From the NCBI RefSeq assembly GCF_017348835.2, contig NZ_CP072317.1: 64,000 nt of DNA. One strand, given 5' to 3'. Positions 36,001 through 39,000 of this stretch are shown in pieces. This DNA comes from Escherichia coli (GTDB lineage: Bacteria; Pseudomonadota; Gammaproteobacteria; Enterobacterales; Enterobacteriaceae). Position numbers: made by a program. Every line of letters starts with the position of its first letter. Positions within the stretch are counted from its first letter, which is position 1.

Positions 36001-39000
36001 CATATTGGCATATTCAAACTTTGGATTCCCGGAGACATGGGGACTTAGAGACTCAATACCCAAAATTTTCGCTACTGATGACTGTGTTTTTACAACACAT
36101 TCAAGAAGAAGTTTATTAAACTCTGTCTGATTAAACGCAGACTCTTTACGCTCCATCTGAGCCTCATATACACGAAGCCCCAGTTCAAGAAGCATTGAAG
36201 CTGTTCCCGAAACACTTATATCTTTATCTCTTGCCCCCTCCTGACGACGCTGTTCAACTATCGCATTTACTTTATCATAGACATCATTACTGATATACAA
36301 AATTACTCTGGCCATAAGATAAAACCTTTCATTATTAAGCAATGAACTTTTCACTATAAATATGCATATAGTGTTTACAAGTAAGAAAGACACTCCTAGC
36401 AGCGCCTCTAGGATCATCCTATAAAAAAATGCGATCCGGCGCTAGGGGCGTCCCTAATATATATCAATGTTTTTCATGAAAATTGTCAGTACTGATCCTA
36501 ATAAGAGTCGCTATAGGGTCGTAACAGGATCGCCAACGACTCTCTATTTAATAATTCAGAATTATTAAATATAAATAGCGTTTGTTAATTACATGATTTA
36601 AAACGTAAATCAGCAAAAACTTGTTTTTGCGTAGTGTGTGGTGCTTTTGGTGGTGAGAACCACCAACCTGTTGAGCCTTTTTGTGGAGTGGGTTAAATTA
36701 TTTACGGATAAAGTCACCAGAGGTGGAAAAATGAAAAAATGGATGTTAGCAATCTGCCTGATGTTTATAAATGGGATCTGCGAAGCCGCCGATTGCTTTG
36801 ATCTTGCAGGTCGGGATTACAAAATAGACCCGGATTTACTGAGAGCGATATCATGGAAAGAATCCCGTTACCGGGTTAATGCCATCGGTATTAATCCGGT
36901 AACGGGATATGGCAGCGGACTGATGCAGGTAGATTCCCAGCATTTTAACGAACTGGCCCGCTATGGAATTAAGCCGGAACATCTGACAACAGATCCCTGT
37001 ATGAACATTTATACCGGTGCTTATTATCTGGCAATAGCCTTTAAAAAATGGGGCGTCTCCTGGGAGGCCGTTGGTGCATACAATGCCGGATTCAGGAAGA
37101 CCGAACGCCAGAACCAGAGACGTCTTGCCTACGCATCAGAGGTTTACCGGATTTATACCTGGATAAAGAGCAGTAAAGGCATCCGGGTTCCGACCACGAA
37201 GAAATCACTTTCCCAAATTAACAGTGTGCAGAAAAATTAATATTGTATACATTGTCAAATACCGGTTATGCCGCGACAGCGGCATGGAAGGCCACACACA
37301 AAAATATCATATGAGTGATAATGCTGACTGGCCGAAGCCCCGCAAAGCGGGATCCCATCTTATATATATCCGGTAACTGCGCAGCCTCCTGCCAGACCAT
37401 TTTTCGCGGGCACAATATTTACAGACTACCGAAAAGCCAGTTGATGAAATTGAGGCATATCAGACGACACAGCAATGCCGCAGGATGATAATATAAGTAA
37501 AGCCCCGAAAAATTTTTCGGGGCTTTACTTATATTATCATGACTTCCACTCCCTGAACTGTTCGGCAATCATCCATAATGCTTTGTTGATTCGGATATCA
37601 CCGTCAATGCCTGTAATGGCTCTTGTTCTGGTATTTTTACCGGAGGCACTTCGCCCCGATAATCCACCTTTTATCATATTCTCCTGAACCCGCTGCCAGG
37701 TTGTCCAGAGATCGTTCTGTTTATCCTCCCAACGGCGGGGAGTAATTATTTGTTCTGGCGTCACTGGCGTTTTATTTTCATCTTCGTACCTGGCCATCAA
37801 TGCAGCTCTGCCAAATAAATGTTGTTCGTCACTGTTAAGATGTATCTCTTTCATTGTCTCCATATTTTCAGTGACTTTATCAAAGACACCGAGCACTTCA
37901 TACGCTCCCTCAATAACCTGCCCGACAATATCACCTTTATGTGGAACGCGGATTTCGCCAAAATTATTCCCACACACCAGGCCATTTGTGCAGACAAAAC
38001 GAAAAATTCCTGGGATCATCTGATAACTGGATGAACCATCATGTGAATTAAGCAGGATAATTTCAGGAACTTCTTTCCCGTTAATATGCCCTTCCCTGCG
38101 AAGACGTAACATATGTTTACTGTATTCGCGGCGTCCCAAATCACGAACCCGACTCTGACAGGCAAAGAATGGCTGGAAACCTTCATCACGTAACTTATTG
38201 ATGATATTGATGGTTGGGATATATGTATAACGCTCACTCCGGGATTCATGTTTATCACCAGAAAAGACAGATGGAACAAACTGCATTAATTCGTCATCCG
38301 TTAACGGGCGCTCACGGCGAATAGAATTATATCGACCAAAACGGGAAGCTAATCGCATAACAGTAACTCCTTTATGAAGGCATAAAATTAATAAAAGTTT
38401 TTTCGCTTAATATCATCCCCCCTCGGTTATCGTTAACAAAAAGACAACAATTCCGAGGGGAAGGACCATCAAATCAGGTCAGTTCGGGACTGACCAACCT
38501 GCCGAGTGAAAAGCAGTAACAGCGCGATCAACTCATCAGCGTTTTTTCTGACAAGAGGAGTATGATTCTCCAGGCTATCCAGTAAGTCATGCAGCTCATT
38601 ATTGACCTGGTGGAGCACCTTAAAGAGTGCACCAGAATCCCGGCAGCTCTGATATGCAAGATTTGCCTGAACAGCACGATTCTGCATGATCCCGATTTGT
38701 GCGATTGCGTCTTTCTGCTGATCGCCTGTTGGCTGATAAGTGGTGTTAAAAGAAAATGCGCTCATAATTCCTCCTGTATCTGATGTTTTCAGCCCCCATC
38801 ATCTGTTGAGTTTCGGGAGCCGCGGTTTTGACGTTTTGCGGGGACCTGCCTTTTGTTCCCTCCGGTATTCACCATCACCTGTTTGAGAACCTTCGCCGCA
38901 AGGGGCATCACTGCCACGGCCTGACGCACCTGTCCTGGGCAGAACGCAAAATTTTTTACCGGGTTTTGGGTAAAAAATTTTGTGGGCTGTTCATTTACCC

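Follow-up and report, generated by a model that had tools for sequence, protein, structure and literature searches.

The 64,000-nucleotide stretch of Escherichia coli DNA analysed here (contig NZ_CP072317.1 of assembly GCF_017348835.2; hereafter the window) carries an F-like origin of transfer (oriT) and, 27.5 kb from its nick site (nic) and on the opposite strand, the gene traI for a conjugative relaxase. We compared the nick site and the relaxase with their counterparts in plasmids R100 (NC_002134) and F (NC_002483). The elements of the nick region, with a slash marking the scissile bond, are the following:

36613-36630, + strand: oriT hairpin, an inverted repeat of GCAAAAAC and GTTTTTGC adjoining the recognition bases on their 5' side (repeat search; 8-nt arms, 100% complementary)
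36626-36647, + strand: sequence recognised and nicked by the relaxase, TTTGCGTAGTGTGT/GGTGCTTT, in its R100 allele (transferred strand; exact match; same as R100, two differences from F)
36633-36635, + strand: discriminating bases A36633 and T36635 (G and G in F), bases 7 and 5 on the 5' side of nic (alignment with F and R100)
36639-36640, + strand: nic, scissile bond T36639/G36640 (placed from published F and R100 oligonucleotides)
36647-36666, + strand: inverted repeat of TTGGTGGT and ACCACCAA, 3' of nic (repeat search; the same in F and R100)

The window holds a single copy of the 22-mer TTTGCGTAGTGTGTGGTGCTTT, on the + strand at 36626-36647; this falls within the interval 36620-36650 for which the sequence-only reading had reported a nic region of R100 type. 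No match was found in 100 dinucleotide-preserving shuffles with up to 3 mismatches tolerated, and none is expected by chance. The 22-mer is that of R100 and differs from that of F only at A36633 and T36635, both of which are G in F; the allele is GCGTAGTGTGT/GG, with A and T replacing F's G and G. The alignment with both references therefore agrees with the earlier claim that two discriminating positions set this site apart from F. The window sequence also agrees with the published 'R100' oligonucleotide, GCAAAAACTTGTTTTTGCGTAGTGTGT, whose F version reads ...GCGTGGGGTGT (PMC3074121). We placed the scissile bond between T36639 and G36640 because the published F and R100 oligonucleotides stop at ...GTGT and restart with GGTGCTTTTGG...; the hairpin repeat has the sequence of the 'Hairpin' oligonucleotides of the same study (PMC3074121).

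The features of the relaxase gene, numbered with Met as residue 1 so that the catalytic tyrosine is residue 16, are these:

3836-9106, - strand: traI, bifunctional relaxase/helicase of 1756 residues (open reading frame (ORF); Pfam TrwC relaxase, TraI_2B, AAA_30, TraI_C)
8117-9106, - strand: relaxase domain ('TraI36'), residues 1-330 (100% identical to R100; 92% identical to F, 28 differences)
9056-9061, - strand: codons of the catalytic Tyr16 and of Tyr17 (direct read)
8630-8671, - strand: metal-binding histidines His146, His157 and His159, an HUH-type motif (direct read)
8648-8650, - strand: Asp153, codon GAC (Glu in F), a third R100-type substitution present in published swap mutants (direct read; PMC3245843)
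8528-8530, - strand: Arg193, codon CGG (Gln in F) (direct read)
8504-8506, - strand: Gln201, codon CAG (Arg in F) (direct read)

ORF 3836-9106 is the only one in the window of sufficient length for traI. Its product is a MOBF HUH relaxase, since Pfam PF08751 (TrwC) matches residues 10-283 with an E value of 5.6e-80 and both the N-terminal tyrosines (Y16, Y17, Y23 and Y24) and the three histidines (H146, H157 and H159) are in place; Tyr16 is the nucleophile (PMC3074121). The Pfam matches TraI_hel_assoc_N, ssDNA_TraI_N, TraI_2B, AAA_30 and TraI_C, together with the length of 1756 residues, identify an F-like relaxase/helicase, and the relaxase domain matches the structures of F TraI36 (PDB 1P4D and 2A0I) and R1 TraI (5N8O) with an E value of about 1e-204. 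At the positions that tell the two types apart, F TraI has Gln193 and Arg201, both in NC_002483 and in PDB 1P4D, as well as Met2 and Glu153, whereas the window TraI has Arg193, Gln201, Leu2 and Asp153, all of the R100 type. The Arg193/Gln201 pair that had been read from the sequence as R100-like is thus upheld by the alignment of residues 1-330. Over its full length the protein differs from R100 TraI at 1 of 1756 residues and from F TraI at 66; the sole difference from R100, Thr1435 in the window versus Ala (codon about 4802-4804, - strand), lies in the C-terminal part.

Identity with R100 is not confined to the nick core. From the traM start side to position 36643 (36330-36643) the window is 100% identical to R100 in a base-by-base alignment; a 601-base segment around the nick likewise has a perfect match in R100 and in many E. 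coli, Klebsiella, Salmonella and Citrobacter plasmids of the IncFII group; and 29119-41963, from traR through oriT to psiB, shows 1 mismatch to R100 in 12,845 bases (99.99%). A36633 and T36635 with Arg193 and Gln201, plus Leu2 and Asp153, are the R100 specificity allele, and nic and TraI match because the relaxosome module (oriT, traM, traY and traI) was inherited from the R100 lineage with essentially no change. As TraI residues 1-330 and the aligned oriT stretch are 100% identical to R100, the pair in the window is, judged by this identity, literally the R100 pair that has been studied experimentally, and the earlier description of a matched cognate relaxase and site is supported. No finding of the analysis speaks against this identification. 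We put at roughly 93% the probability that 36626-36647 is the oriT nick site of an R100-lineage IncFII conjugative plasmid, with a cognate R100-type TraI and inefficient mobilisation by F.

The last part of this reading depends on how strictly the two types discriminate and on the other relaxosome proteins, which are encoded as follows:

36316-36730, strand not assigned: oriT intergenic region, from the traM start to the orf169 start (identity with R100)
35932-36315, - strand: traM, relaxosome DNA-binding protein, R100 allele Arg3/Ile5 (ORF starting MARVI; Pfam Tra_M)
34703-34930, - strand: traY, relaxosome accessory protein, 75 residues, R100-type (ORF; Pfam TraY; R100 annotation)
9106-11358, - strand: traD, coupling protein that takes the relaxosome via TraM (ORF; R100 annotation by position)

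The two R100 base substitutions significantly lower the affinity of F TraI for its site and impair cleavage by its relaxase domain (PMC3074121). From the protein side, M2L/E153D/Q193R/R201Q, the F-to-R100 substitutions of Harley and Schildbach 2003, lower the affinity for the F/R1 nick sequence, which is identical in R1 and F, and E153D/Q193R/R201Q in R1 TraI abolishes function on the F/R1-type nick site (PMC3245843). Since the swaps in R1 TraI abolish function and the R100 bases weaken F TraI, the TraI layer alone blocks function in at least one direction. Preferential binding and cleavage of the window site by R100 TraI over F TraI is accordingly a prediction supported by its identity with R100 and by this secondary literature; in the reviews and papers searched for it, cross-specificity between the TraI proteins of F and R100 turned up in reference lists only.

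Three observations weigh against a strict form of this discrimination. Firstly, F TraI joins R100-sequence oligonucleotides if the adjacent hairpin is present, and specificity is thus context-dependent (PMC3074121). Secondly, the pairing of nick allele and TraI across plasmids is not strictly all-or-none, as NZ_CP122717 combines an A..G nick with an F-type TraI (see below). Thirdly, Fekete and Frost (2000) reportedly found R100-1 TraI to be insensitive in vivo to the two-base difference; if that result holds, discrimination would be asymmetric.

The first of these points also favours the view that the barrier to mobilisation by F lies mainly in the alleles and sites of TraM, and possibly of TraY, the nic/TraI pair being a minor layer. 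The TraM of the window has the R100 residues Arg3/Ile5. On F DNA the R100 protein functions badly, and it is a poor substitute in an F traM mutant; with the F residues at these two positions transfer rises 60,000-fold (PMC3159463). For this reason TraM is an independent barrier. The window traY has the 75-residue R100 form as against 402 nt annotated for traY in the F record, so that the relaxosome is of the R100 type in both TraM and TraY, and outside the nick core, toward traM, the oriT alignment diverges strongly from F. The TraY allele may be a further barrier to mobilisation by F. Against a minor role for the relaxase stand the weakened binding and cleavage by F TraI on R100 bases and the loss of function of the swapped R1 TraI, both described above. 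We hold it possible, at somewhat less than even odds, that TraM, perhaps together with TraY, carries most of the barrier, and the two views are complementary, not exclusive: at least two specificity layers, the TraI/nic pair and the TraM allele, are present together. The earlier expectation that F TraI would mobilise the plasmid inefficiently therefore stands as far as the R100 bases weaken its binding and cleavage, and is incomplete in that the TraM allele would contribute too.

Taking up the reading of an R100-type relaxosome with its cognate TraI, transfer would follow the known F-like mechanism, as far as sequence identity allows it to be projected onto the window. The oriT intergenic region should contain the binding sites for TraM, TraY and IHF, and these three proteins would assemble there. 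The relaxase domain of TraI would then bind the single-stranded bases 5' of nic on the + strand, and Tyr16 would cut between T36639 and G36640, remaining linked to the 5' phosphate of G36640, while the helicase part would unwind the DNA. The + strand would pass into the recipient in the 5' to 3' direction, beginning with the leading region (orf169, hok/sok, psiB and ssb) and ending with the minus-strand tra operon. An F-type TraI should bind and cut this nick site poorly, F TraM should fail on the window oriT, and F TraY would probably do likewise, which would make mobilisation by F inefficient.

Like other F-like oriTs, that of the window lies between traM and orf169 (gene X), and its nicked strand points 5' to 3' toward the leading region; from nic the + strand enters orf169, hok/sok, psiA/psiB and ssb, genes as annotated in R100, with sok found by Rfam at 39836-40012. 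The first of these genes is:

36731-37240, + strand: orf169 (gene X), lytic transglycosylase, first leading-side gene from nic (169-residue ORF from ATG 36731; Pfam SLT)

On identical plasmids RefSeq annotates the SLT transglycosylase coding sequence from a GTG that corresponds to window position 36638 (36638-37240, + strand; 603 nt, 200 residues), a version that would open one base ahead of the nick and span it. A more plausible start is ATG 36731, from which the classical 169-residue orf169 is read, its N-terminus resembling a signal peptide.

It might be argued that the plasmid has lost the ability to transfer itself and that its oriT is a relic, in which case the match would have no present function. 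Truncated tra regions are found in many IncF plasmids, among them pSTEC506, p22C036LT3 and pBSI055-KPC2, and the window has an intact finO (1488-2048, - strand, 186 residues), under which transfer would probably be mostly repressed. Against this, the tra ORFs from traM to traX are all full length, the region being 99.3-99.99% identical to the self-transmissible R100, which is why the transfer apparatus looks functional, and 3669 of the 4068 PLSDB plasmids that match the oriT segment at any identity are typed conjugative. Rfam detects FinP and the traJ 5' untranslated region at 35732-35841; with finO intact as well, fertility inhibition probably works in this plasmid and keeps transfer repressed, as it is in wild-type R100. 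We regard a relic as very improbable.

A hybrid pair, in which recombination within the mosaic IncF tra region (mosaic, for example, in pMTY13066_IncFII) had joined an R100-type nick to an F-type relaxase or the reverse, was rejected as next to impossible, since alignment and direct reading gave an A..T nick and a TraI with R193, Q201, L2 and D153 that matches R100 at all of residues 1-330.

How nick allele and TraI are paired elsewhere was surveyed in nine plasmids with both elements readable, a small sample that does not amount to a statistical test:

A..T nick (R100-type) with Arg193/Gln201, four of nine: the window, R100, p140_MLI109 and pFII_4011
G..G nick (F-type) with Gln193/Arg201, four of nine: F, pMTY13066_IncFII, pSLT and pGD31-F1928
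A..G nick (intermediate) with Gln193/Arg201, one of nine: ETEC1749 plasmid unnamed5 (NZ_CP122717)

A full mismatch between nick and TraI was seen in none of the nine. The nick site of pSLT escaped a 56-nt fuzzy search, its flanks having diverged, and was found by direct reading of the intergenic region. No usable pair came from pSTEC506 and p22C036LT3, whose truncated tra regions are without oriT, or from pBSI055-KPC2, which is without traI. In PLSDB as a whole, a 101-nt oriT segment is matched at ≥99% identity in 1154 records and at 95-99% in 2735, and TraI residues 1-330 at ≥99% in 1189 records and at 90-95% in 2559; these aggregate counts are compatible with one-to-one pairing and are no proof of it.

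The intermediate site, on a plasmid of enterotoxigenic E. coli (ETEC; NZ_CP122717.1, 76403-76596), reads TTTGCGTAGGGTGT/GG, with A then G at the discriminating bases, and the TraI of this plasmid is F-type throughout (Gln193/Arg201, Met2 and Glu153). This allele may be an evolutionary intermediate, or it may reflect tolerance of a single change by an F-type TraI. A doubtful but conceivable extension is that the switch from F to R100 specificity may have passed through a surviving DNA-first intermediate, of which the half-switched GCGTAGGGTGT/GG with its F-type Gln193/Arg201 TraI in NZ_CP122717 would be an example; if so, the pair in the window would be the end state, with which resistance plasmids of the R100 lineage would have a transfer channel insulated from co-resident F/R1-type plasmids.

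Other plasmids met in the survey show how the region varies. In pMTY13066_IncFII (NZ_CP128920.1) TraL, TraU, TrbC, TrbB and TraH are identical to those of R100, the F type is found in oriT, TraM, TraJ, TraY and the relaxase domain of TraI, and IS100 interrupts traN; this mosaic suggests that the relaxosome module is exchanged and travels as a unit. In paAPEC5202 (NZ_LR740759.1) an F-type nick site is followed on its 3' side by GGTACTTTT. In pJKHS016_1 (NZ_CP147062.1) the nick site is R100-type, and a G-to-T change (TTTTTGTGG) disrupts the inverted repeat downstream of it in the left arm.

The plasmid in the window differs from R100: it is an IncFII plasmid of the pHK01/pT224A kind and lacks the Tn10 of R100. 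It is pHK01-like because four antisense RNA families defined in pHK01 match the window, all above the Rfam gathering score (in the order reported):

1067-1250, + strand: AS-pc02 (Rfam)
6181-6257, + strand: AS-traI, inside traI (Rfam)
15648-15733, + strand: AS-traG (Rfam)
47342-47443, + strand: AS-pc01 (Rfam)

Its accessory region, of the IS26/blaCTX-M type, matches that of ~70-kb IncFII CTX-M plasmids such as pT224A: about 90% of 46000-64000 is covered at 100% identity by the ~70-kb IncFII plasmids pT224A and NZ_CP033629. In the region that matches 46000-64000, these two plasmids carry parM/stbA, IS26 copies, blaCTX-M-15 or -55, blaTEM and fosA3.

Among the main carriers of CTX-M beta-lactamases are the R100-like IncFII plasmids. 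For the window, the analysis means that oriT can be annotated to the base pair, with the nick at 36639/36640, as part of an intact and self-consistent relaxosome module of the R100 lineage, and little beyond this correct annotation. A cloned copy of this oriT is predicted to be helped by R100-type plasmids and only poorly by F/R1-type ones, and both the typing of plasmids and the design of relaxase-targeted interference can make use of the specificity allele. The specificity biology of R100 and F was worked out more than 20 years ago, and nothing in the window itself is new, the R100 pair being already known.

Among known systems R100 (NR1) is the closest, with the same alleles as the window for the oriT stretch, TraI residues 1-330, TraM (Arg3/Ile5) and the 75-residue TraY. 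Besides the accessory region, the following places set the two apart. R100 carries Tn10 (~9 kb, IS10-tetB-IS10) in its leading region, whereas in the window the R100 alignments abut at 41940-41963. TraD has 738 residues in R100 and 750 in the window; an overlap of some 50 bases between two R100 alignments at 9421-9473, within traD (9106-11358, - strand), suggests a change of length in the repetitive C-terminal region of TraD. Between traR and traC, R100 has two adjacent paralogues, the window a single copy encoding a hypothetical protein of ~160-170 residues, a difference of ~411 bp; the places concerned in the window are 29031-29546 and 29119-29529, and pFII_4011 is likewise single-copy.

F (NC_002483; PDB 1P4D and 2A0I) resembles the window in the position of oriT between traM and orf169, in the flanking inverted repeats and the 3' side of nic, and in the domain organisation, catalytic Tyr16 and histidine triad of TraI. 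Unlike the window, it has G/G at the nick, Gln193/Arg201, Met2 and Glu153 among the 28 differences in TraI residues 1-330, Lys3/Asn5 in the TraM beta-ribbon, a longer TraY and an oriT that has diverged outside the nick core. The TraI proteins of R1 (PDB 5N8O) and of Salmonella pSLT are MOBF F-like relaxases with the same fold and motifs, both with the F-type Gln193/Arg201, and the nick of pSLT is the F-type GCGTGGGGTGT/GG, unlike that of the window. TrwC of R388 (PDB 1OMH) and TraI of pCU1 (3L57) belong by sequence to the same MOBF HUH family (E about 1e-50); they are distant homologues with other nick sequences and without an F-like TraM/TraY relaxosome.

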